Part shown: positions 1 through 19,024 of the stretch, piece by piece | Layout: the number at the start of each line of letters is the position of its first letter | Numbering within the stretch: position 1 is the first letter of the stretch | Assembly: GCF_001465295.1 (NCBI RefSeq) | Contig: NZ_CP011034.1 | Span: 690,001 to 722,000, forward strand | DNA: 32,000 bases | Direction: 5' to 3' | Source of the DNA: Pseudoalteromonas translucida KMM 520 | Lineage (GTDB): Bacteria; Pseudomonadota; Gammaproteobacteria; Enterobacterales; Alteromonadaceae | The notes under the pieces: generated by a model | What the model was told of the DNA's origin: nothing | The model's input: the letters and a program-made list of their open reading frames with translations, nothing else | The model's database searches: none | Program-made: the position numbers and the translations under genes

Positions 1-727
1 TAGGCTCAAACAAGGACTCTTTGTTATCTACATCAACAATGGCAAAGCCAAGTTTATTGCCAAGCATGCTAATAGGAAAACGCAGCTCAATATTGTAGCC
101 AGCCGCTGTACTGCTAAAATAGCCCTGAATTTTTGTAAAGGGTGCTTTGCTATCTGCATTAAAAGCGTTTACCCAGCCATCTTGCCGCGGGGCAATAATG
201 TAGCGGTTAAACTGCCCATCAGGTGTTTTTAAGCCAATTTTTAAATGGTCGTTATTAGTAATACTTAAACTGTTTTTTGGCCGATAAACGAGTTGGTTAT
301 CTGTTACTTTAAACAGTGCATAAAGGTAATTATCAAACTTTCCTACCATGTGCTCAAACGACAGATCGCTGGCTTGATGCTTGTTGTCGGTTTTTTGTAA
401 GTAGCGTTTGTCGTATTGCCAAAATAATGCCTGATAGCTCTCCCAATCTGTGAGCTTACCATCGAGTTGAATAGGATTTTTAAGGTTGTACGCGTATAGA
501 TCGCGGCCCTTTACAACCTGATCTAAAAAACTAGTTTGCTGATCAAATAATGCAGGGCGTTCATGCAGGGCTGTGGCTAGCGCACGGGTAGTGCCTACTA
601 AGGTTTTTTCTTGACCTTGGCGTAAAAACTTTTCCATTTCCCACACATATTCGTAGCCCAACCAGGGCAATAAAAATAAAAAGCAAGAAAGTAAAATAAA
701 CTTACTACGTAGGCCAAATCGCAACAT
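1..727 (-). CDS. Sensor histidine kinase, N-terminal sensor part only (3' end runs off the window); candidate dedicated-sortase-system kinase (PdsS-like)
   Basis: Not in the ORF track because it is edge-truncated. I translated the minus strand by hand from the ATG at 727-725. It reads MLRFGLRSKFILLSCFLFLLPWLGYEYVWEMEKFLRQGQEKTLVGTTRALATALHERPALFDQQ...GNKLGFAIVDVDNKESLFEP and stays open to base 1 (about 242 codons). It has an N-terminal TM helix. Its ATG overlaps the TAA of the upstream response regulator (TAATG), implying an RR-HK operon. Confidence 0.75.
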   Translation of the reverse strand, partial: MLRFGLRSKFILLSCFLFLLPWLGYEYVWEMEKFLRQGQEKTLVGTTRALATALHERPALFDQQTSFLDQVVKGRDLYAYNLKNPIQLDGKLTDWESYQALFWQYDKRYLQKTDNKHQASDLSFEHMVGKFDNYLYALFKVTDNQLVYRPKNSLSITNNDHLKIGLKTPDGQFNRYIIAPRQDGWVNAFNADSKAPFTKIQGYFSSTAAGYNIELRFPISMLGNKLGFAIVDVDNKESLFEP

Positions 728-1416
728 TAAATTTGCTCCCACCTATAGCCCATGCCATACACTGTGTCTATGCAGTCAAAGTTACTATCGAGTGCTATAA
801 ACTTTTTACGAATACGTTTTACGTGTGAAGTTATGGTGCTGTCGTCTACATAAATTTTTGCATCACTCATTAATTCATTACGGCTTTTAACGTGTCCGGG
901 GCGCTGTGCGAGGGAGTGCAACATCCAAAATTCGGTTACTGTTAAATCAACTAATAGTTGTTGCCAAAACACCTGCATACGCTGCGTGTCGAGCGTTAAT
1001 GGCCCGCGAGTTATAAGTGCATTTTCGTCGGCAGGTTGTTTAAGTGCTTCCATACGACGAAATAGCGCACCAATACGCGCCGCTAAATGAGCCAAACTAA
1101 TATCTTTTGTGAGGTAGTCGTCGGCGCCCATGCGTAGGCCACACACTGTGTCTATTTCGCTATCGCGAGCGGTTAAAAAAATAATAGGCAGCGTTTTAGA
1201 CAGTGAGCGCAAAGTTTGGCACAGTAAAAAACCACCATCTATTTCATTACCTAAGCCAATATCAACAATGGCTAAATCGGGCAGTACATTTTTAAACGCC
1301 GCTTCTGCGCTACTACGGTTTGCATACCCCGTTACCTGATAACCTTGTGCGCTGAGCATTTCAGTGTAGTTTTCGCGAATGGCGGGTTCATCTTCAATGA
1401 TGGCTATTTTTTTCAT
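727..1416 (-). CDS. OmpR/PhoB-family response regulator (receiver + winged-helix); candidate dedicated-sortase-system regulator (PdsR-like)
   Basis: ORF 727..1443 begins at a TTG. The ATG at 1416 (MKKIAIIEDEPAIRENY...) is preceded by AGAGGA. Receiver motifs are present (IEDE, LAIVDIGLG, FLTA). The C-terminus is an OmpR-type winged helix (LTVTEFWMLHSL...VYGMGYRW). Confidence 0.9.
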   Translation of the reverse strand: MKKIAIIEDEPAIRENYTEMLSAQGYQVTGYANRSSAEAAFKNVLPDLAIVDIGLGNEIDGGFLLCQTLRSLSKTLPIIFLTARDSEIDTVCGLRMGADDYLTKDISLAHLAARIGALFRRMEALKQPADENALITRGPLTLDTQRMQVFWQQLLVDLTVTEFWMLHSLAQRPGHVKSRNELMSDAKIYVDDSTITSHVKRIRKKFIALDSNFDCIDTVYGMGYRWEQI

Positions 1417-1478
1417 TTCTGGGTTTATCCTCTTTATTACCAACGCACTATAACGAAGTTTTTAAGCTAAGTACGCTT

Positions 1479-1548
1479 AAAAAGGCAATTGCCTTTTTTT
1501 TGCCACAATTGCTCAGTGGTTTGCCATTTTTGATCCCCTTTGTTGCCA
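1479..1548. promoter_or_regulatory. Candidate operator array in the divergent pdsR / pdsO promoter region: 20-bp perfect palindrome plus phased TTGCCA repeats
   Basis: AAAAAGGCAA|TTGCCTTTTT (1479-1498) is a perfect palindrome. TTGCC(T/A) occurs at 1489, 1500, 1521 and 1543, giving spacings of 11, 21 and 22 bp, which keeps the sites on one helical face. Nothing ends here that would need a terminator. Confidence 0.4.
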
Positions 1549-1618
1549 CTTGAGCTTGTTTTAATACACCCATCAAAACAAAACATCACAAATTAAAAAG
1601 TAAGTTTAAGGATCAATC

Positions 1619-2353
1619 ATGAAGAAGACATTAATAGCGCTAACCCTAGCGGGCGTTTTTTGCGGCCCCGCATTGGCATCAACCTCTAATAATACGGCTA
1701 CAAAAGAAGCGCACACCGAAACCGCAATAGGCTTAGGAGCGGGCGCTATTATAGGTGGTGTAGTAGGCGGCCCAATTGGTGCTTTTGTGGGAGCATTTGC
1801 TGGTGGTTTAATAGGCGATGCAAAAGTTGCTGATAACAAAATTGCCGAGCAACAGCGTGCAATAACTGTAATGACAGAAAAAACCAACGACTACCAACAC
1901 CTACTTAGCCATAACAGCCAGTTAGAGCAACAAATCGAAGTGCTTGCTAATCAAAATGAGCAGTTAACACAATCGCAAATTAATAATTTACTTGCCATGA
2001 CAGTACAGTTTAAAACTGGCTCACGTGTTATTGCGCCACATTTTGCATTGCAGTTAGATCAACTCGTCACGCTTTTAAAAAACCAGCCACAGTTAGCGCT
2101 CGATTTAAGTGGGTTTGCCGATCAACGCGGTGATGAACAAGCCAATCTTTTACTTTCAAAGGCACGTGTAAATGCGGTGCAAAGCTATTTAATAAAACAG
2201 GGCGTAAGCCACACGCGCTTAAGCACGCAAGCATTTGGTGAGCAGCAAACACTCGCTAAAACTAACACAGTAGAAGACAACACGTTTGATCGGCGGGTAA
2301 CCCTTACTACTCGTTTAATAAACTCTGTAAATAGCCAAACAGCAAGTAATTAA
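1619..2353 (+). CDS. OmpA-family protein with N-terminal glycine zipper and coiled coil (PdsO-like, sortase-system OmpA protein)
   Basis: Signal peptide MKKTLIALTLAGVFCGPALA|S. Glycine zipper GLGAGAIIGGVVGGPIGAFVGAFAGGLIG. Q/L-rich coiled coil. C-terminal OmpA-like peptidoglycan-binding domain (LSGFADQRGDEQANLLLSKARVNAVQSYL...RRV). RBS AAGGA lies 7 nt upstream of the ATG. Confidence 0.9.
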   Translation: MKKTLIALTLAGVFCGPALASTSNNTATKEAHTETAIGLGAGAIIGGVVGGPIGAFVGAFAGGLIGDAKVADNKIAEQQRAITVMTEKTNDYQHLLSHNSQLEQQIEVLANQNEQLTQSQINNLLAMTVQFKTGSRVIAPHFALQLDQLVTLLKNQPQLALDLSGFADQRGDEQANLLLSKARVNAVQSYLIKQGVSHTRLSTQAFGEQQTLAKTNTVEDNTFDRRVTLTTRLINSVNSQTASN

Positions 2354-2379
2354 ATTTAAGCCTTCGATGGAGTGATTTT

Positions 2380-4374
2380 ATGTATTTTTTGAGTAAACCA
2401 AGCAAAGTGCTTACCCTTAAATGGGTAAGCCTTTTTACACTGGGTATACTGGTGATGTTAACGAGCTTTAAAAGCCACGCACAATCTCCCAAGTTAGAAC
2501 TTTTTGATAGCAGCGGCGCGCAAGCAGGCCCTGCAATAATATTAAAAAGTGATGCAAATATGACATTAACCGGACTTATTAATCATGTTGTAGTTAAGCA
2601 AACTTATCAAAACCAAAACCCGTTTGCTGTTAATGCGCGTTATGTGTTTCCGCTGCCCGATGAAAGCGCAGTACATGCTATGACCATGCGTATTGGCGAG
2701 CGAGTAATTAAGGGCCAAATTGATAAAAAAGTGGCGGCCGAAAAAAAATATGCAGAAGCCAAACAGGCAGGCAAGCAAGCAGCACTAGTACGCCAGCAAC
2801 GCGCAAATATGTTTATTACAAACGTAGCTAATATAGCCCCTGGGGAGCAGGTTGTTATTGAGCTGGAATATCAAGAAATAATTGATTACAGCAGCGGCAC
2901 TTTTACAGTGCGCTTTCCGGGCACAATCACACCGCGTTATCATGTAACCCAAGGTGAAATTGACATAAATAAAGAAAGCCAAAAACCAACTAACTCGCTA
3001 CCACATGGTTGGCTAAGCCCAGTTTATAGCACGCAAAAAAATGACGAACAGCTAAGCAGCCAGTTTAATTTAAACTTAGATATAGACGTAGGTTTAGAGC
3101 TGGTAGATATAAATTCTAAATTTCATAATGTAAATATTCAAAACACTGCATTTGGGCAATACACAATAGAGTTAAATGAGCAAAATGCGCTAAACCGCGA
3201 CTTTGTACTGGAGTTTAAACCACTGCAAAAAGAGCAAGCTCAAGCTGCATTTTTTACCGAGCAGTTTGAAAATGGTGAACGCTACGGGCTCGCTATGCTA
3301 ATGCCGCCTGCAGATAACTTTATAGCAACGCAGCGATTAGCCCGCGAAACGGTATTTGTAGTCGATACTTCGGGCTCTATGCATGGGCAGTCTATGGAGC
3401 AAGCTAAAAACGCACTGTTTTATGCGCTATCGCTGTTAGACAGTAACGACAGTTTTAATATTGTAGGGTTTGATAATGTAGTAACCCCAATGAGCGATAA
3501 ACCTTTAGTTGCAAGTGGCTTTAATTTACGCCGTGCAGAGCGTTTTATATATGGATTACAAGCCGACGGCGGCACAGAAATACAAGGCGCACTTGATTCC
3601 GTGTTAGATGGGTCGCAGTTTGATGGTTTTGTACGCCAAGTAATATTTTTAACCGATGGTAGCGTAAGCAACGAAGATGCACTGTTTAAAAGTATTCAAG
3701 CCAAATTAGGCGATAGCCGCTTATTTACAGTTGGTATTGGCAGTGCCCCCAATAGCTTTTTTATGCGCCGTGCGGCAGATGTAGGTAAGGGCTCGTTTAC
3801 TTTTATAGGCAGCACTAGCGAGGTGCAACCTAAAATGCAGCAGTTATTTGATAAGCTCGCACACCCTGCAATTACTAATTTAGCGCTAAGCGATGAAAAG
3901 GGCAATAGCTTAGACTTTTGGCCGTCACCACTGCCAGACCTCTATTTTAATGAGCCAATAATGGTAGCTATAAAGCTCAATAATGCCAGTAATGTAATAT
4001 TAAACGGGCAAACTGCACAAGGGCCTATTAGTATTAACCTAAACACACAAGCAGGCTCAAATGCGAAAGGAATTGCTAAGCTGTGGGCTCGTCAAAAAAT
4101 TAAGTCGTTGCTGCTCTATAACTCACAAAATGCAGTTAAAGACGAAGTGCAACAATTGGCGCTTACTCATCAATTACTCAGCCCATTTACGGCTTTTATA
4201 GCAATAGAGCAAACACAAATCAATCCAATAGCAGAACAAACAGCTAATGCCACTAATGCAATACCTCAAGGTATGGCCATGCGTTTGCCGCAAACCGACG
4301 GGCAAAGCAAAGTACATATAATATTAGGAATTTTATTGTTAAGTGGGTTTGTGCTAGTAAGGCGTTTTAAATGA
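2380..4374 (+). CDS. Sortase target protein: signal peptide, VIT domain, von Willebrand factor A domain, C-terminal LPXTG-type sorting signal (LPQTD-G + TM + RRFK)
   Basis: VIT-like N-terminal region (VNARYVFPLPDESAVHAMTMRIGERVIKGQI). vWA MIDAS motif VVDTSGSM, followed by DGGTEI and LTDGS. The C-terminus LPQTDGQSKVHIILGILLLSGFVLVRRFK is a classical tripartite sorting signal. GGAG RBS upstream. Confidence 0.92.
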   Translation: MYFLSKPSKVLTLKWVSLFTLGILVMLTSFKSHAQSPKLELFDSSGAQAGPAIILKSDANMTLTGLINHVVVKQTYQNQNPFAVNARYVFPLPDESAVHAMTMRIGERVIKGQIDKKVAAEKKYAEAKQAGKQAALVRQQRANMFITNVANIAPGEQVVIELEYQEIIDYSSGTFTVRFPGTITPRYHVTQGEIDINKESQKPTNSLPHGWLSPVYSTQKNDEQLSSQFNLNLDIDVGLELVDINSKFHNVNIQNTAFGQYTIELNEQNALNRDFVLEFKPLQKEQAQAAFFTEQFENGERYGLAMLMPPADNFIATQRLARETVFVVDTSGSMHGQSMEQAKNALFYALSLLDSNDSFNIVGFDNVVTPMSDKPLVASGFNLRRAERFIYGLQADGGTEIQGALDSVLDGSQFDGFVRQVIFLTDGSVSNEDALFKSIQAKLGDSRLFTVGIGSAPNSFFMRRAADVGKGSFTFIGSTSEVQPKMQQLFDKLAHPAITNLALSDEKGNSLDFWPSPLPDLYFNEPIMVAIKLNNASNVILNGQTAQGPISINLNTQAGSNAKGIAKLWARQKIKSLLLYNSQNAVKDEVQQLALTHQLLSPFTAFIAIEQTQINPIAEQTANATNAIPQGMAMRLPQTDGQSKVHIILGILLLSGFVLVRRFK

Positions 4375-4994
4375 AAAAGTGGCTAAGCGCGGGGCTATTA
4401 ATACTTGGTTTGGGGTTTTTTGGGCATGGCGCTTACATGCAAGGCAAAGCATGGCTGGCGCAATTACTAATTGAACAGGCCTGGCAACAGGCCCTTAAAA
4501 CGCCTGAGGCAAAAGTTAAGCCATGGTTTTACGCCGATAGTTATGTAACCGCACAATTAAATTGGCCGGCGCATAATGAAAAGCTCACTGTATTAGCAGG
4601 TGCTAGCGGGCGTAATTTAGCTTTTGCGCCCAGCCACTTTTTACCCGCAGCAGAGCTTGGCAGTAAACAAGCTGGGGCACTCATTGCAGGGCATAACGAC
4701 ACTCACTTTGCTTTTATACAGCACGTTAAAGTGGGAGAGCAGTTTACCCTGCAATTACAAAATGGCACCTTACAGCATTATAAAGTCACCGGCAGCGAGG
4801 TCATTCATGAGTCAGAAAACACATTTTTACACACTGCACAATTGTATTTATTAACGTGCTACCCTTTTGACGCGTTAGCATCGGGAACCGAATTTAGGCT
4901 ATTGGTTTCGGCTGAAATGATATCGGAGATTGTCAGGTCGGTGGAAATATCCTCGCCCGACTCGGCGCTGGGGATATCAACCACTAATTCTTGA
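4371..4994 (+). CDS. Sortase (Gram-negative / marine proteobacterial type), membrane anchored
   Basis: N-terminal TM anchor (WLSAGLLILGLGFFGHGAY). Catalytic-triad context is present: AGHNDTHF (His), LYLLTCYPF (TLxTC-like Cys) and EFRLLV (Arg). The start overlaps the target gene stop (ATGA), implying translational coupling. Confidence 0.9.
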   Translation: MKKWLSAGLLILGLGFFGHGAYMQGKAWLAQLLIEQAWQQALKTPEAKVKPWFYADSYVTAQLNWPAHNEKLTVLAGASGRNLAFAPSHFLPAAELGSKQAGALIAGHNDTHFAFIQHVKVGEQFTLQLQNGTLQHYKVTGSEVIHESENTFLHTAQLYLLTCYPFDALASGTEFRLLVSAEMISEIVRSVEISSPDSALGISTTNS

Positions 4995-5890
4995 TGACGT
5001 TGGCTGATCATTACGCCAACAAATACCACAAATATACTCAGCCACTGCCACAAGTTAAGCACTTCATTTAAAATGATGGCCGAAAGAATCAGCGTAAATA
5101 TAGGAATTAAATTTGAATAAGCCGCTGCGGTTAATACCGAGACCTTACTAATAGCGTAGTTATACATACCATAACCGCCTAAAGTAACAAACGAGCCTAA
5201 ATATAAAATGCTTAATAAAGCGGTTATATTGTGCTGATTTTCACTTGGTAGGTCGATAAAAAGCAAAAACGGTGCAAAAAACAAACTGCCACTAATACCT
5301 TGCAGCGCTATAAGCGTTAACGGTGAATAACGACTCGCTAAGTGTTTAATACAAACGGTATAAAACGCCGCGCATACCATGGCCATAAGTTCTAAAAAAT
5401 TACCTAATAATGGGTTAGGTGCTTGCTCGGAGTTTGGTGAAAGCACAGTGAGTAAAATGCTGCCACCAATACAAAAAGTAAAGCCAATAATAATAGATTT
5501 ACTGATGTATTCTTTAAGCATAAAAAAAGCCAGTACAGCAATAATAATAGGCAAGCACGACACAATTACCCCCGCCTGCGATGCCGAGGTATATTCCATT
5601 GCGTGGCCTTCAAATAAAAAGTACAAGCACGGCTCAGCCAGCGACATAGCAATTAAATACTTCCAGTCACCAACTCTGTATTCAAAGCGTATTACATAGC
5701 GCCATAAGCACAGCGATAAAAATACTGTGGTTAGCATGCGTAAAAATATCACCAAAGCGGGGTCGTAAATAGCAATGGCATATTTAAGTGCAATAAAGGA
5801 ACTACCCCATAAAAAGGTGGCAATAATTAAACATAAACTGGCAGGCATAGCAGGTAATTTACACAATTGAATAAAATCAGATCCTAGCAT
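4859..5890 (-). CDS. EamA/DMT-superfamily transporter (10-TM)
   Basis: Two EamA-like halves with hydrophobic helices throughout (FLWGSSFIALKYA..., ALQGISGSLFF...), followed by an acidic low-complexity C-terminal tail. The start is ambiguous (M1 at 5890 or M15 at 5848) and neither has a clear SD. Confidence 0.85.
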   Translation of the reverse strand: MLGSDFIQLCKLPAMPASLCLIIATFLWGSSFIALKYAIAIYDPALVIFLRMLTTVFLSLCLWRYVIRFEYRVGDWKYLIAMSLAEPCLYFLFEGHAMEYTSASQAGVIVSCLPIIIAVLAFFMLKEYISKSIIIGFTFCIGGSILLTVLSPNSEQAPNPLLGNFLELMAMVCAAFYTVCIKHLASRYSPLTLIALQGISGSLFFAPFLLFIDLPSENQHNITALLSILYLGSFVTLGGYGMYNYAISKVSVLTAAAYSNLIPIFTLILSAIILNEVLNLWQWLSIFVVFVGVMISQRHQELVVDIPSAESGEDISTDLTISDIISAETNSLNSVPDANASKG

Positions 5891-10126: not shown

Positions 10127-10996
10127 CTAGGTTTTACTAAGCATAGGATAAGTAAATAAAAAGAAATGACAAACATTGACTAACCAATGGCATAAAATAG
10201 CCCACTCTAAACGCTGCGTTTTATAAAAAATATAGCCATACCCTAAGCCTGCAATAAATGAAACCAATACATAGTTAACTCCCCCTGCAAAATGTGCCAA
10301 AGCAAAAATACCTGCAGTAATTACAGGGGCAAGTATTGCCAAGCGGGTAGGCGTAATAATTTGGCTAAGTTTGGTTTGTAATAAGCCTCTAAATAAAGCT
10401 TCTTCAGCAACACAGGTAAATAAAAGGTTTATAGCAATAAAGGCCAACCAGAAGTCAGGAATCTTAGGGTTAAAACTTACCAGCCCAAGCATTAAAGCAA
10501 AAGTAAGAGCGGCTAAAATAGTAGCAATAATTATTAAAATAGGGTGTTTAAAATTTAGTGAAATTGTCTTTTTAGATTCTGCTTTTAAAGGCTTTTTATT
10601 TGAATAAAAGTAAGTACAAAGAAAAAGGCCAACCATAGCTTTATCAAAATTAGCATAAAGGGTAAAAGCAATTGCATCGCTGGTAATATGCTCGTTTATA
10701 GCAATAGGAAGGTTGTTAAAACCAGGTACCCAATGAAGCGCTAATGCCAATGAGGAAACTATAAAAACAGTGCTAAAAATAGCGCGTATTATTGTTTGCT
10801 TTGTATGAAGCGCAAAGTGATATAAAGCAACGTAAAGCCCAGTATTGAGCAGTCCATATAAATTTATATACCCCTCAAAATACGCACATATAACACTTAA
10901 AGCCATTAAGTAGTACCAAAGTGGTTGCCGTATTATTGATACTTTACAGTACGGAAAAATACATATAATCGATAATGCTAATAAATAAAAAGTCAT
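10127..10996 (-). CDS. CPBP-family intramembrane glutamic endopeptidase (CAAX protease / Abi family)
   Basis: Polytopic membrane protein carrying the CPBP motifs EEALFRGLL, FALAHF and HWLVN. Confidence 0.85.
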   Translation of the reverse strand: MTFYLLALSIICIFPYCKVSIIRQPLWYYLMALSVICAYFEGYINLYGLLNTGLYVALYHFALHTKQTIIRAIFSTVFIVSSLALALHWVPGFNNLPIAINEHITSDAIAFTLYANFDKAMVGLFLCTYFYSNKKPLKAESKKTISLNFKHPILIIIATILAALTFALMLGLVSFNPKIPDFWLAFIAINLLFTCVAEEALFRGLLQTKLSQIITPTRLAILAPVITAGIFALAHFAGGVNYVLVSFIAGLGYGYIFYKTQRLEWAILCHWLVNVCHFFLFTYPMLSKT

Positions 10997-15163: not shown

Positions 15164-18043
15164 ATGAAATTTAAATTTTTAGCAACCAGTTTAGCGGTAT
15201 CGCTGGCACTGTCGGGTTGCGCTATTGAACAAAATCAAACGAGCCAAGCAGTAACACAACAACAAACAAGCACTGCGGGCGAGGGCGTTTTTTCACAAGA
15301 CTACCTACTAGAAGAGCTTGAAAATGGCTTGCGCGTTATGGTGGTTAAAACCGATTACCCAGATGTAGTCTCGTTGCAAATTCCTGTATCGGTAGGATCA
15401 CGTAATGAAACGCAAGCAGGTAAAACGGGCTTTGCGCATTTTTTTGAGCACATGATGTTTAAAGGCTCTGAAAAATTTCCTGAGGCTGTGTATTCAAGTA
15501 TTTTAAAAAACTCTGGTGTTGATAACCGCGCGTACACCACCAACGATTACACTAACTATCATTTAAACTTTTCAAAGCAGCATCTTGATAAAGTACTTGA
15601 GCTTGAAGCTGATATTTTTCAAAATTTAACCTACACCGAAGAGCAATTTAGAACCGAAGCGCAAACGGTAAAAGGCGAGTACTTAAAAAATAATGCCAGC
15701 CCAGTGCGTAAGTTACTTAGCGCAGTGCGCGAAGAGGCCTTTGAGCAACACACTTATAAACACACCACTATGGGCTTTTTTAAAGACATAGAAGCCATGC
15801 CTGATCAAATGGCTTATGGTAAAGAATTTTTTGCCAAATTTTATAAGCCCGAATATGTATCGCTTGTAATTGTGGGTGATGTAGACCCAAAAGCCACTAT
15901 GGCTATGGTTAAAAAGCACTGGGGTGCGTGGAAAAAGGGTGACTATGTTGCCGACATTAAAGCAGAGCCAACACAGCAAGCGCCAAAATATAGTCATCAA
16001 CAAAACCCAGGTTTACCAGGGCATTGGTTATTAGTGTCGTATAAAGGTACTGCGTGGGAGCCGGCTAAAAAAGACAGAGCTGCGCTTGATTTACTCTCGC
16101 AGCTTTATTTTTCAAACAACTCAGATTTATACCAAGAGCTAGTGGTAGATAAACAAATTGCCAGCCAAATGTTTAGCTATAACCCAGAAACCAAAGATCC
16201 GGGTTTACTGCATGTATTTGTAAAAGTAGAAAAAGCAGACGATTTAGCCAAAGTACGCGATGCAATCAATCGTACCTACGCTCAAGCGCGTACTGAGTTA
16301 GTAGATAGCCAAAAACTCAGTGACTTAAAATCTAACCTTAAATACAGCTTTATAAATGGTTTAGATTCGTCGCAAGCAATTGCTGCAACCCTTGCAAGCT
16401 ACATGCATTTTGAGCGTGACCCTAGGGTAATAAACCAACTATATAAAACCTCAGATGAAATAACAGCTGAAGATATTAAAGCAATTGCCAACAAGTATTT
16501 TGTTGATAGTGCACGCACTACCGTGACTATGTCGGCACTTGATAAAGCGCCAAACTTTGAGCAAGAGGTTGATTTAAACGCACTGGTTGCAAAACTGGAG
16601 CAAGCACCTCAGGCTGCTGCATTTAAAGTGCTAGATAAAACTAACAGCTCGCCATTAATTGACGTTAACTTTTTATTCAATACCGGGGCTGCTGCCGATC
16701 CGCAAGGTAAAAAAGGCCTTGGCGCATTAACTGCGGCTATGCTGGCGCAAGGTGGCTCACAATCAACAAGCTATAAAGATATTAAACAAGCACTTTATCC
16801 GTTGGCAGGTAGCTTTGGTTATCAAATAGATAAAGAGATGCTGTCGTTTCAAGGGCGTATTCATAAAGATAACGCCGCTAAGTGGTATGCATTAGTGAGC
16901 GATCAGTTACTCAACCCTGGTTTTAGGGACGATGACTTTAAACGCCTTAAAAAAGAAATGATCGACGGCATTAAGTCAGGCTTAAAAGCATCTAACGATG
17001 AAGAACTAGGTAAAGAAGTGCTATACAGCGCGCTTTATAAAGGCCACCCTTATGAAAGCTACAACTATGGTGATATTTCAGATTTAGAAGCGCTTACGCT
17101 TGATGATGTTAAAACGTTTTATAACACTGAACTTACGCAATCTAAGCTAACGCTTGGCTTAATTGGTGCAGTACCAGAAAAACTAAAAGCCACTATGCTA
17201 GCTGATTTAGCAGGCCTGCCTAAAGGCGAGCAAAGCCGCTTAAGTATTCCAGATGCGCCTGAGCTTAAAGGTCATCATGCTACTATTGTTGAAAAGAGTG
17301 CGCAGTCGACAGCGGTATCGTTTGGTTTTCCAATTGATACAATAAGAAGTAGTGAGGATTGGACTGCACTGTGGTTAGTACGTTCTTACTTTGGTGAGCA
17401 TCGTAGTTCTAACAGCTTTTTATATGAACGCATTCGTGAAACCCGTGGCATGAACTACGGCGATTACGCGTACATAGAGTACTTTCCGCGCGGTATGTTT
17501 CAAACCAAGCCTGATGCAAACCTAGGGCGCTCTGAGCAAATTTTTCAAGTGTGGTTACGTCCGCTTCGCTCTAATAACGATGCGCATTTTGCCACTCGTA
17601 CCGCCTTGTTTGAGCTTGATAAGCTAATTAAAAATGGCATGAGTGAAGATGACTTTGAAGCCACACGTAACTTTTTAATTAACTTTGTGCCGCAAATGGT
17701 GGCAAGTCAAAACCGCCAACTAGGTTATGCGCTTGATAGCGAGTTTTACAATACCGACAGCTTTGTAAGTTACGTTACTAACAAACTTAAAACGCTAACA
17801 GTAGAGGATGTAAATCGCGTTATTAAAGATAATCTGCAAACCGATAATATCCATTATGTGTTTATTACCGGTGACGGCGCTGATATGCAAAAGCGTTTAG
17901 CGCCTGAGCAAACATCGCCAATGGTTTATAATACCGATAAACCAGCCGAGCTTGTTGCAGAAGATAAAGTGATTGCCGATTACAAGTTAGCTATTCCGGC
18001 AAAAAATATTGCAGTGATGAAAGTCGATAAAGTATTTCAATGA
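15164..18043 (+). CDS. Zinc metallopeptidase, M16 (pitrilysin/insulinase) family, tandem double-unit lipoprotein
   Basis: Lipobox SLALSG|C. HxxEH zinc motif HFFEHMMFKG. The second half repeats the M16 fold without HxxEH. The ORF-track start is TTG 15140; the ATG at 15164 has the RBS AAGGAAAA. Confidence 0.9.
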   Translation: MKFKFLATSLAVSLALSGCAIEQNQTSQAVTQQQTSTAGEGVFSQDYLLEELENGLRVMVVKTDYPDVVSLQIPVSVGSRNETQAGKTGFAHFFEHMMFKGSEKFPEAVYSSILKNSGVDNRAYTTNDYTNYHLNFSKQHLDKVLELEADIFQNLTYTEEQFRTEAQTVKGEYLKNNASPVRKLLSAVREEAFEQHTYKHTTMGFFKDIEAMPDQMAYGKEFFAKFYKPEYVSLVIVGDVDPKATMAMVKKHWGAWKKGDYVADIKAEPTQQAPKYSHQQNPGLPGHWLLVSYKGTAWEPAKKDRAALDLLSQLYFSNNSDLYQELVVDKQIASQMFSYNPETKDPGLLHVFVKVEKADDLAKVRDAINRTYAQARTELVDSQKLSDLKSNLKYSFINGLDSSQAIAATLASYMHFERDPRVINQLYKTSDEITAEDIKAIANKYFVDSARTTVTMSALDKAPNFEQEVDLNALVAKLEQAPQAAAFKVLDKTNSSPLIDVNFLFNTGAAADPQGKKGLGALTAAMLAQGGSQSTSYKDIKQALYPLAGSFGYQIDKEMLSFQGRIHKDNAAKWYALVSDQLLNPGFRDDDFKRLKKEMIDGIKSGLKASNDEELGKEVLYSALYKGHPYESYNYGDISDLEALTLDDVKTFYNTELTQSKLTLGLIGAVPEKLKATMLADLAGLPKGEQSRLSIPDAPELKGHHATIVEKSAQSTAVSFGFPIDTIRSSEDWTALWLVRSYFGEHRSSNSFLYERIRETRGMNYGDYAYIEYFPRGMFQTKPDANLGRSEQIFQVWLRPLRSNNDAHFATRTALFELDKLIKNGMSEDDFEATRNFLINFVPQMVASQNRQLGYALDSEFYNTDSFVSYVTNKLKTLTVEDVNRVIKDNLQTDNIHYVFITGDGADMQKRLAPEQTSPMVYNTDKPAELVAEDKVIADYKLAIPAKNIAVMKVDKVFQ

Positions 18044-18074
18044 AGGTTTAAATAGTTATAAATTAAGATAATTT

Positions 18075-18105
18075 AAATGCCCCATACATTGGGGCATTTT
18101 TATAT
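18075..18105 (+). terminator. Rho-independent terminator after the M16 peptidase gene
   Basis: Stem AAATGCCCCA (18075-18084) / TGGGGCATTT (18090-18099), 5-nt loop, T-rich tail. Confidence 0.85.
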
Positions 18106-18159
18106 TTTGAATAATTTTTTAGTAATATGTATTTTTTGATAAGGTTAAAAGGAATTAGT

Positions 18160-18939
18160 ATGTGTAAATTTTTAAATAAACCTCTTAATGTCTATCTTTT
18201 TATAGTAACTTTTTTTCTAATAATTGGTTTGCCATATATTATTAAATTTGGTTTTGGTTTTTGGGATACACAATCCGAATGGGGGGTAATGGCGACATAC
18301 TTCGGTGGAATGTTAAGCCCTGTTCTCGCGTTTTTTACAGTTATAATTTTGATTCAAACAAATGGAAAAAACCAAAGAGCACATAGGAGTGTTCTTCGTC
18401 AAAATGCAAGGCATCATCAACAGGTTGTTTCACAAGTAGAGCAGCAATTATTTAATAGCCTTTTTGCTCAATTAGCTAGCGATCTAGAGAAAAGTGTAGA
18501 GAAAAAACTAGAAAGTGATTCAAGTTACTTTACTAAGATTACAGATGAATTATGTGACATAGAACCTAGTGAAATAGAATTTAATATTGATGAGTTCTAT
18601 TCGGAGCAAGCAAGTAAAATAATTAAGAGCGAGAAGTATCAAGGTGTATTTGAAAAAGAGAGTGAATTATTTGCCCTTTTATTTGAGGAAGTGATAGAGC
18701 TTGCAAAAAAAAGCAGGCACTCTCAAGAAATTACAGAAAAGTATTTTTATCGCTTACGAGGATATCTAACTAAAGAGCAATCTTTTTGGATAAATGTTTA
18801 TGCTGAACAATGTTGTGAAAATTATAAAAGCCTTAAAAAGTATCAATGGGAGGATATGAGATATTTCCCTTCATTTGAAGAACCAGAAAAGTTAAAAGAT
18901 AAAATAAATTCCATTAGAGATGGAATATCTAATAACTAG
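18160..18939 (+). CDS. Hypothetical two-TM membrane protein; motifs resemble the putative phage abortive-infection (putAbiC-type) family
   Basis: The ATG at 18160 is preceded by AAAGGAAT. There are two N-terminal TM helices, the second being WGVMATYFGGMLSPVLAFFTVIILIQT. This is followed by QQLFNSLFAQL and an acidic helical domain. The gene is visibly more AT-rich than its neighbours. Family assignment is from remembered motifs only. Confidence 0.45.
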   Translation: MCKFLNKPLNVYLFIVTFFLIIGLPYIIKFGFGFWDTQSEWGVMATYFGGMLSPVLAFFTVIILIQTNGKNQRAHRSVLRQNARHHQQVVSQVEQQLFNSLFAQLASDLEKSVEKKLESDSSYFTKITDELCDIEPSEIEFNIDEFYSEQASKIIKSEKYQGVFEKESELFALLFEEVIELAKKSRHSQEITEKYFYRLRGYLTKEQSFWINVYAEQCCENYKSLKKYQWEDMRYFPSFEEPEKLKDKINSIRDGISNN

Positions 18940-19024
18940 ATAAAATAACTAAGGGATTAACACCTTAGTGACTAAATCCGTTAAACTTATCAAAAGGCTC
19001 TTTTTGATCAACAAAGGCAGTAAT

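Follow-up and report, generated by a model that had tools for sequence, protein, structure and literature searches.

For some two decades, the sortases of Gram-negative bacteria have stood as a curiosity without an explanation. The closest described loci are those of Shewanella, in which a sensor kinase and a response regulator are encoded divergently from pdsO, a sortase target, and a sortase. In Shewanella oneidensis, the kinase–regulator pair PghK/PghR (SO2192/SO2193) responds to beta-lactams, vancomycin, and D-cycloserine and also to loss of PBP1a; its activation requires His508, Asp52, and Arg177, Tyr178, and Ile289 of the CBM9-like periplasmic domain, and PghKR induces blaA, relV, and SO2194-96 (pdsO, target, and sortase) more than 17-fold (Yin et al. 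2023, bioRxiv 10.1101/2023.05.05.539549). In Shewanella algae, a recurrent pdsS G547W allele was selected under beta-lactam therapy, with the sortase up 126-fold, the target 388-fold, and pdsO 799-fold (Huang and Liu 2024, PMC11580497). Here, we analyzed a 32-kb stretch of DNA (the window, meaning the whole stretch) that begins with five adjacent genes of these kinds and whose sortase target matches a Pseudoalteromonas translucida KMM 520 protein at 100% identity. It is near certain that these genes are the P. translucida copy of the PdsS/PdsR-controlled (in Shewanella, PghK/PghR-controlled) class GN sortase system, and the locus is a typical member of the dedicated sortase system already catalogued in marine Gram-negative bacteria rather than a new kind of system.

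Results

The five genes belong to the dedicated sortase system

The genes and the sorting signal lie at the following window positions.

1..727, minus strand: pdsS/pghK sensor histidine kinase gene, 5' third, start codon ATG at 727..725, truncated at the window edge (TIGR03785)
727..1416, minus strand: pdsR/pghR, OmpR-family response regulator of 229 residues with Asp52 (TIGR03787; Pfam Response_reg and Trans_reg_C)
1619..2353, plus strand: pdsO (TIGR03789; Pfam OmpA)
2380..4374, plus strand: sortase target of 664 residues (TIGR03788; Pfam VIT and VWA_3)
4285..4371, plus strand: sorting signal of the target, LPQT/DG (residues 636-641), hydrophobic helix (642-661), and RRFK tail
4371..4994, plus strand: class GN sortase of 207 residues (TIGR03784; Pfam Sortase)

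On the minus strand, the TAA stop codon of the regulator gene (729..727) overlaps the ATG of the kinase gene in a TAATG at 725-729. On the plus strand, pdsO is followed after a 26-nt gap by the target gene, whose TGA overlaps the ATG of the sortase gene as ATGA at 4371-4374. The five families, their order, and their orientation match those of SO2192-SO2196 of S. oneidensis and of the pds locus of S. algae, where the kinase and regulator genes likewise diverge from pdsO, target, and sortase.

Hidden Markov model searches with the curated NCBIfam cut-offs placed four of the five products above threshold: the regulator (TIGR03787, 424.2 bits against a cut-off of 335.7), PdsO (TIGR03789, 291.2 against 152.2), the target (TIGR03788, 822.5 against 551.65), and the sortase (TIGR03784, 225.3 against 158.25, with the whole model, positions 1-174, covered). 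The kinase fragment scored 343 bits over positions 1-233 of the 703-position TIGR03785 model, whose cut-off of 612 applies to the full-length protein. In a near-identical relative (L201), the 711-residue kinase scored 1124 bits; it is 99% identical to the fragment over the 242 residues encoded in the window, and the targets of the two loci are 98% identical. With the kinase judged through this relative, all five gene products would fall within curated NCBIfam families.

A preliminary description of this DNA had assigned these families correctly, down to all five TIGRFAM accessions, and the failure of the proteins to match the family models, which it had named as one outcome that would speak against it, did not occur. 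Its five adjacent genes are real, but the locus is not complete as it had stated, because the kinase gene runs off the window start with 242 of about 711 residues inside. It had also presented the locus as the best candidate in the window for an under-described system, which overstated its novelty; its statement that the inducing signal was not established is outdated, peptidoglycan damage having been reported for the S. oneidensis orthologues (bioRxiv 10.1101/2023.05.05.539549).

Target and sortase form the invariant core of the system

Relatives were collected from one genome per species by a scan seeded with a 14-sequence sortase alignment, which yielded at least 595 relatives, and the best 80 loci were analyzed. 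The sortase family comprised 914 clusters at 50% identity (E <= 1e-10). The loci come from gamma- and beta-proteobacteria, Woeseiaceae, Myxococcota, and Nitrospira; some metagenome bins also contribute, with the labels Acidobacteriota, Verrucomicrobia, Flavobacteriaceae, and Deinococcota, although bin labels are not fully reliable. Since loci occur in Myxococcota, Nitrospira, and these other labelled bins, the term "proteobacterial" is too narrow for the system.

The target gene lay directly upstream of the sortase gene in every locus with upstream DNA (77/77). Kinase and regulator genes were divergently upstream in 47 of the 65 loci with sufficient flank and absent within 8 kb in the other 18, and clustering of neighboring open reading frames gave no additional universally conserved partner gene. 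The invariant core is the target plus the sortase. The five-gene layout of the preliminary description is present here but is one variant across the 80 loci rather than what defines the system.

PdsO was found to vary in the same comparison. It reached or neared its family cut-off in only 13 of the 80 loci; its place between regulator and target was seen in Pseudoalteromonas and, outside the genus, in just three loci, the remaining OmpA-like neighbors being of Pal or YiaD type. OmpA-like genes 5-7 kb downstream in Woeseiaceae were considered as pdsO candidates and rejected as members of the YiaD family. In the window, PdsO opens with a type I signal peptide, after which come a glycine zipper (residues ~36-66), a Gln/Glu-rich stretch of coiled-coil-like character, and, at 131-221, an OmpA-like peptidoglycan-binding domain, which has a DRRV motif at 224. 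The early reading of an OmpA-like glycine-zipper protein fits the Pfam OmpA match (59 bits), with Gly-zipper_YMGG at 26.9 bits falling slightly under its cut-off of 28.9. A lipoprotein was rejected, given the type I signal peptide and a single Cys that is not conserved among orthologues. PdsO is probably a lineage-restricted, co-induced accessory; because most target–sortase loci are without it, PdsO cannot be the general acceptor.

The target carries an intact MIDAS site and a tripartite sorting signal

The target begins with a signal peptide (hydrophobic at residues 9-30), followed by a VIT domain (58-164) and a VWA_3 domain (324-473), and ends as first described in a tripartite C-terminal signal, with LPQTD at 636-640 ahead of the hydrophobic segment and the basic tail. 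Cleavage by the sortase is predicted between Thr639 and Asp640, and a linker of only about 25 residues joins the folded body to LPQT. The MIDAS residues D329, S331, S333, T399, and D426 are all intact, and each is invariant in 65-66 of 66 homologues. No lysine is invariant among the 66 targets, the best column having 80% Lys. The LPQTDG motif is common to eight Pseudoalteromonas loci, in contrast to the xPxTAT of most of the family ([FLY]P[AQKR]TAT in most loci; LPQTGG in Bowmanella and YPQGGT in Kangiella). No second open reading frame with a sortase-type C-terminal signal was found among those of the 32-kb window.

Inter-alpha-trypsin inhibitor (ITI) heavy chains are cleaved near the C-terminus and transferred covalently via the new C-terminal residue onto chondroitin sulfate or hyaluronan, stabilizing the matrix. 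Two such chains, ITIH4 and ITIH1, were detected by sequence among the relatives of known structure, together with the VIT-vWA region of PARP4 (E 1.5e-25, residues 64-615); the VIT and MIDAS-bearing vWA body of these proteins is homologous to the target over residues 64-615. Unlike the sortase system, the ITI heavy chains are joined through an ester link by a different chemistry and with no sortase, and the likeness of their transfer to the pds target is one of analogy only.

The start of the target gene contains a further element.

2409..2438, plus strand: terminator-like hairpin (8-bp stem, 6-nt loop) with a T-run, possible attenuator

The stem is perfect and lies within codons 10-20, where the signal peptide is encoded. 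Nine other Pseudoalteromonas loci have a hairpin and T-run at the same position, with compensatory changes or different stems and with the peptide sequence changed; outside Pseudoalteromonas, the hairpin is not general. It may attenuate expression of target and sortase relative to pdsO. This element, the LPQTDG motif, and an overlap of the sortase gene with a convergent transporter gene, described below, are features by which the Pseudoalteromonas loci differ.

The sortase has a complete catalytic triad and is nearest to class D

His108, Cys163, and Arg176 of the sortase are invariant in 61 diverse homologues and align with the corresponding residues of the class D sortase 2LN7, which was the sole sequence match in the PDB (E 4.6e-6). 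K26, L33, W52, D56, L160, and P165 are also invariant in these homologues. The membrane-anchored sortase with an ATGA overlap and His, Cys, and Arg motifs that had been described from the outset was confirmed, but the "TLxTC" motif was not, the actual motif being L-L-T-C163-Y-P-F. An AlphaFold2 model (pLDDT 93.9) shows a helix at residues 2-43, then the sortase beta-barrel; according to the model, this helix would be an N-terminal membrane helix that runs into a conserved juxtamembrane helix.

A Foldseek search with this model returned only Gram-positive sortases, which belong to classes C, E, A, and D and share about 20% identity with it, and no class GN structure in the PDB copy searched. 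The cut-offs of the class D family models were not reached (51.3 bits against 165 for NF033746; 54.4 bits against 140 for NF058671). Judged by its sequence, class D is the nearest sortase class, and the sortase of the window is not a member of it. Class D enzymes of Bacillus (SrtD/SrtC of B. anthracis, 2LN7; NF058671, "LPxTATN-specific") have the triad, the TCYPF motif, and the beta-barrel in common with class GN, and their LPxTA(T) resembles the family-majority xPxTAT. In contrast, identity is about 20%, the juxtamembrane-helix residues K26, A27, A30, Q31, L33, and W38 and a PW.YAD motif are specific to class GN, and class GN works in a diderm envelope. Class D sortases transfer their substrates to meso-diaminopimelate, an amine also present in Gram-negative walls.

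Two observations concern the ends of the sortase gene. Along helix 2-43 (window positions 4371-4500), the class-specific invariant or near-invariant residues K26, A27, A30, Q31, L33, A37, and W38 would lie on one face, and the juxtamembrane helix may be a docking surface for the membrane anchor of the substrate. At the 3' end, the last 136 nt of the gene (4859-4994) are shared with the 3' end of a convergent EamA/DMT transporter gene on the minus strand (4859-5890). The two genes also overlap, by 76-124 nt, in 11 further Pseudoalteromonas loci, where the C-terminal tails of both proteins are recognizably conserved.

The kinase and regulator resemble their Shewanella counterparts

The kinase fragment has a single transmembrane segment at residues 10-28 and a portion of a CBM9-like periplasmic sensor, for which the weak Pfam CBM9_1 match (residues 103-237, E 0.0074) is under the gathering score. 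A PDB sequence search with the fragment returned no relative. Its Arg175-Tyr176 correspond to R177/Y178 of S. oneidensis PghK by near-identical numbering, not by alignment, and the phospho-acceptor Asp52 of the regulator matches the D52 required in PghR, so that the regulator Asp52 and the kinase Arg-Tyr pair are common to the proteins of the window and those of the Shewanella loci. An OmpR-type regulator translationally coupled to a sensor kinase, as in the preliminary description, agrees with both the overlap at 725-729 and the family matches. For the regulator, ATG 1416 is the most likely start codon (giving 229 residues), rather than TTG 1443. Because of this start, the divergent intergenic region runs from 1417 to 1618 (202 bp) instead of the 1444-1618 given earlier.

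Related arrangements were seen in other DNA. A metagenome contig (Ga0233432_10006559; L149:2712-4877) carries a pds-type kinase, a regulator, and an intact copy of the candidate operator, followed by a convergent transporter-like gene that replaces target and sortase; therefore, the two-component system can persist without the sortase pair. The near-identical relative has a gene for an MltC-type lytic transglycosylase (L201:3126-4244) about 2 kb past the kinase gene, in DNA beyond what the window covers; no operator repeat was found nearby, and this proximity may be coincidental.

The divergent promoter region contains a conserved repeat array

The following elements were recognized between pdsR and pdsO.

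1447..1452, minus strand: -10-like TATAGT, putatively for the pdsR-pdsS transcript, proposed from conservation
1484..1555, plus strand: direct-repeat array in 11-bp phase, candidate PdsR/PghR sites, conserved across species
1560..1565, plus strand: -10-like TTTAAT, putatively for the pdsO-target-sortase transcript, 5 bp past the last 11-bp repeat unit

The repeats are TGCC at 1490, TGCCACAAT at 1501, TGCCA at 1522, and TGCCA at 1544, with spacings of 11, 21, and 22 bp, and a palindrome, GGCAATTGCC, occupies 1484-1493. An 85-bp block over the repeats hardly varies among nine Pseudoalteromonas species, although their sortases share only 66-74% identity, while the flanks diverge. The arrangement recurs in Woeseiaceae, beta-proteobacterial, and other loci as a GCCACAATT-TGCCACATT array, followed 22 bp on by TTGCCAT and then by T..AAT, the last element being a conserved feature of 45 non-identical promoters, some 60 nt downstream from the main box. 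Of 46 divergent promoters, 44 have YGCCAYAWT on the target strand, and its density in these promoters is 5.3 per kb versus 0.027 per kb elsewhere in the loci (about 195-fold). Several loci without an adjacent two-component system still have the box upstream of the target. Exact matches to an 18-mer in metagenomes adjoined a pds regulator or target in 95 of 120 cases; the remaining 25, away from pds loci, resemble chance matches or simple 11-mer arrays. Long tandem arrays of an 11-mer, TTGCCACAATT, which is the repeat unit of the proposed operator, were also seen in two metagenome contigs (L185:8889 onward and L190:4 onward) with no pds gene adjoining.

Together, these features suggest that the array of TGCCACAATT-like direct repeats is likely the PdsR/PghR operator, a putative assignment made from sequence. 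The case is carried by cross-species conservation and not by the count in the window, because a single match of the tandem pattern, as found there, is common in shuffled sequence (at least one match in 26 of 100 shuffles). A search for a regulon by operator scanning found the tandem pattern at one site in the window and once in 22 kb of a near-identical genome.

As for the promoters, ACTATA is invariant in nine Pseudoalteromonas promoters and is also found beside the regulator start in beta-proteobacterial loci, and the TTTAAT element is invariant in Pseudoalteromonas. Conservation is the sole basis for these proposed elements; a generic sigma-70 scan gave no promoter in the divergent region and overall fewer promoter-like sites than in shuffled sequence. 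The pdsO promoter has no -35 consensus and appears to be activator-dependent. The array would act like a pho box, standing in for the -35 element of the pdsO promoter, and TATAGT would serve pdsR. In common with the pho box of PhoB, another OmpR-family regulator, the candidate array is built of direct repeats in tandem that recur every 11 bp, abut a -10 element, and would replace the -35 element. It differs from the pho box in its repeat (TGCCACAATT), in spanning up to six helical turns, and in the two divergent transcripts that it would serve.

Other observations in the window

The other genes of the window are housekeeping genes (proB, gltX, rhlE, cysE, xseA, guaB, guaA, rimI, and prfC), and no blaA or relV gene was found within the 32 kb. 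Positions 18001-19000 have 29.7% G+C and a GC skew of 0.22, against about 41% G+C elsewhere. An open reading frame at 18127-18939, between a pitrilysin-like peptidase gene and cysE, encodes a predicted membrane protein of 270 residues that matches neither Pfam nor NCBIfam families. At 10130-10996 on the minus strand, a CPBP/Rce1-like intramembrane protease (PF02517) is encoded that gives sub-threshold matches to Mrt families of the myxosortase type, a different class of proteases for C-terminal sorting.

Discussion

The mechanism that we favor would proceed as follows. The CBM9-like periplasmic domain of PdsS would sense cell-wall damage, and PdsR phosphorylated at Asp52 would bind the repeat array in the manner of PhoB at a pho box, activating both divergent transcripts and inducing pdsO, target, and sortase. 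The target would be exported by Sec, and its C-terminal helix would hold it in the inner membrane until the sortase cleaves after Thr639 to form a thioacyl intermediate. The sortase would then move the target onto an amine, most likely the meso-diaminopimelate side chain of lipid II or uncrosslinked peptidoglycan, and the outcome would be a periplasmic, wall-bound, metal-dependent binding protein. We regard this mechanism as a whole, including wall attachment, as having about an even chance of being correct. The choice of acceptor, drawn by analogy with class D and class E sortases, we hold tentatively, at slightly short of an even chance. The preliminary description had considered the acceptor and the biological role not to be established, and our literature search agrees.

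Several points weigh against the favored mechanism. Its regulatory part would be carried over by analogy from Shewanella to Pseudoalteromonas, and a PdsR binding motif is not reported in the S. oneidensis preprint (bioRxiv 10.1101/2023.05.05.539549). In the same work, deletion of SO2194-96 left the ampicillin resistance of S. oneidensis unchanged, and therefore no phenotype links the sortase to wall protection. Experimental work on a class GN sortase or its acceptor did not turn up in the literature search. The LPQTDG of Pseudoalteromonas departs from the family-majority motif. Finally, the GlyGly-CTERM and PEP-CTERM routes taken by VIT-vWA homologues give lipid-type anchoring or export, not wall linkage.

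This last point leads to the alternative that survives best, although we consider it unlikely, namely that the target is transferred to a lipid or another non-peptidoglycan amine, such as the phosphatidylethanolamine head group, and becomes membrane-anchored and possibly surface-routed, by analogy with rhombosortase/exosortase-type systems and their homologous VIT-vWA cargo. Sortases accept many primary amines in vitro, and the shortness of the linker between the folded body and LPQT also speaks for such a destination. In addition, VIT-vWA homologues bear GlyGly-CTERM, PEP-CTERM, or LPXTG tails interchangeably (Haft 2011, PMC3237569), suggesting a shared destination that is independent of wall chemistry. 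However, no outer-membrane translocation or lipid-handling gene is conserved beside the target–sortase pair, the nearest relatives of the sortase are wall-anchoring enzymes, and in Shewanella the operon is induced by wall damage.

Linkage via a lysine to a protein, either PdsO, an outer-membrane protein, or the target itself in a pilus-like fashion, seems quite improbable. The position of pdsO directly upstream in the same operon in P. translucida and the presence of class C sortases among the top structural matches would fit such a linkage, but the rarity of PdsO among the target–sortase loci, the lack of an invariant lysine in the 66 targets, and the occurrence of a single substrate gene in the 32 kb with no pilin-like partner all argue against it. 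Self-polymerization of the target was rejected, there being no conserved lysine.

It is also very unlikely that the sortase is mainly a maturation protease that cuts the anchor and, with water as the nucleophile, frees the VIT-vWA protein into the periplasm: sortases slowly hydrolyze their substrates when a nucleophile is absent and the literature search identified no acceptor, but at least 595 genomes (one per species) and 914 sequence clusters retain the full transpeptidase triad and the dedicated one-to-one pairing, and a signal peptide alone would yield a soluble periplasmic protein, leaving the anchor pointless.

If the favored attachment to the wall is correct, its purpose might be damage-induced repair or reinforcement, in which free diaminopimelate side chains in peptidoglycan that is newly made or broken receive the ITIH-like VIT-vWA protein covalently from the sortase and the MIDAS site bridges or caps wall material or an outer-membrane partner. 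We view this role as possible but doubtful. If true, it would make the system a bacterial counterpart of inter-alpha-inhibitor heavy-chain transfer to hyaluronan and would provide diderm bacteria with a covalent protein-to-wall route separate from L,D-transpeptidase-mediated attachment.

The acceptor question is no more testable from this window than in Shewanella. The locus is a clean, typical example of the system in a cultivable marine genus, and the present comparison refines the picture of the family by a conserved candidate operator, a division into core and accessory genes, and an invariant MIDAS site. Because PdsO is dispensable across the family, the acceptor is to be sought among the universal amines of the envelope and not in PdsO. 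The putative PdsR operator, with its TGCCACAATT repeats, offers a handle on a wall-damage pathway that also controls beta-lactamase expression in Shewanella.

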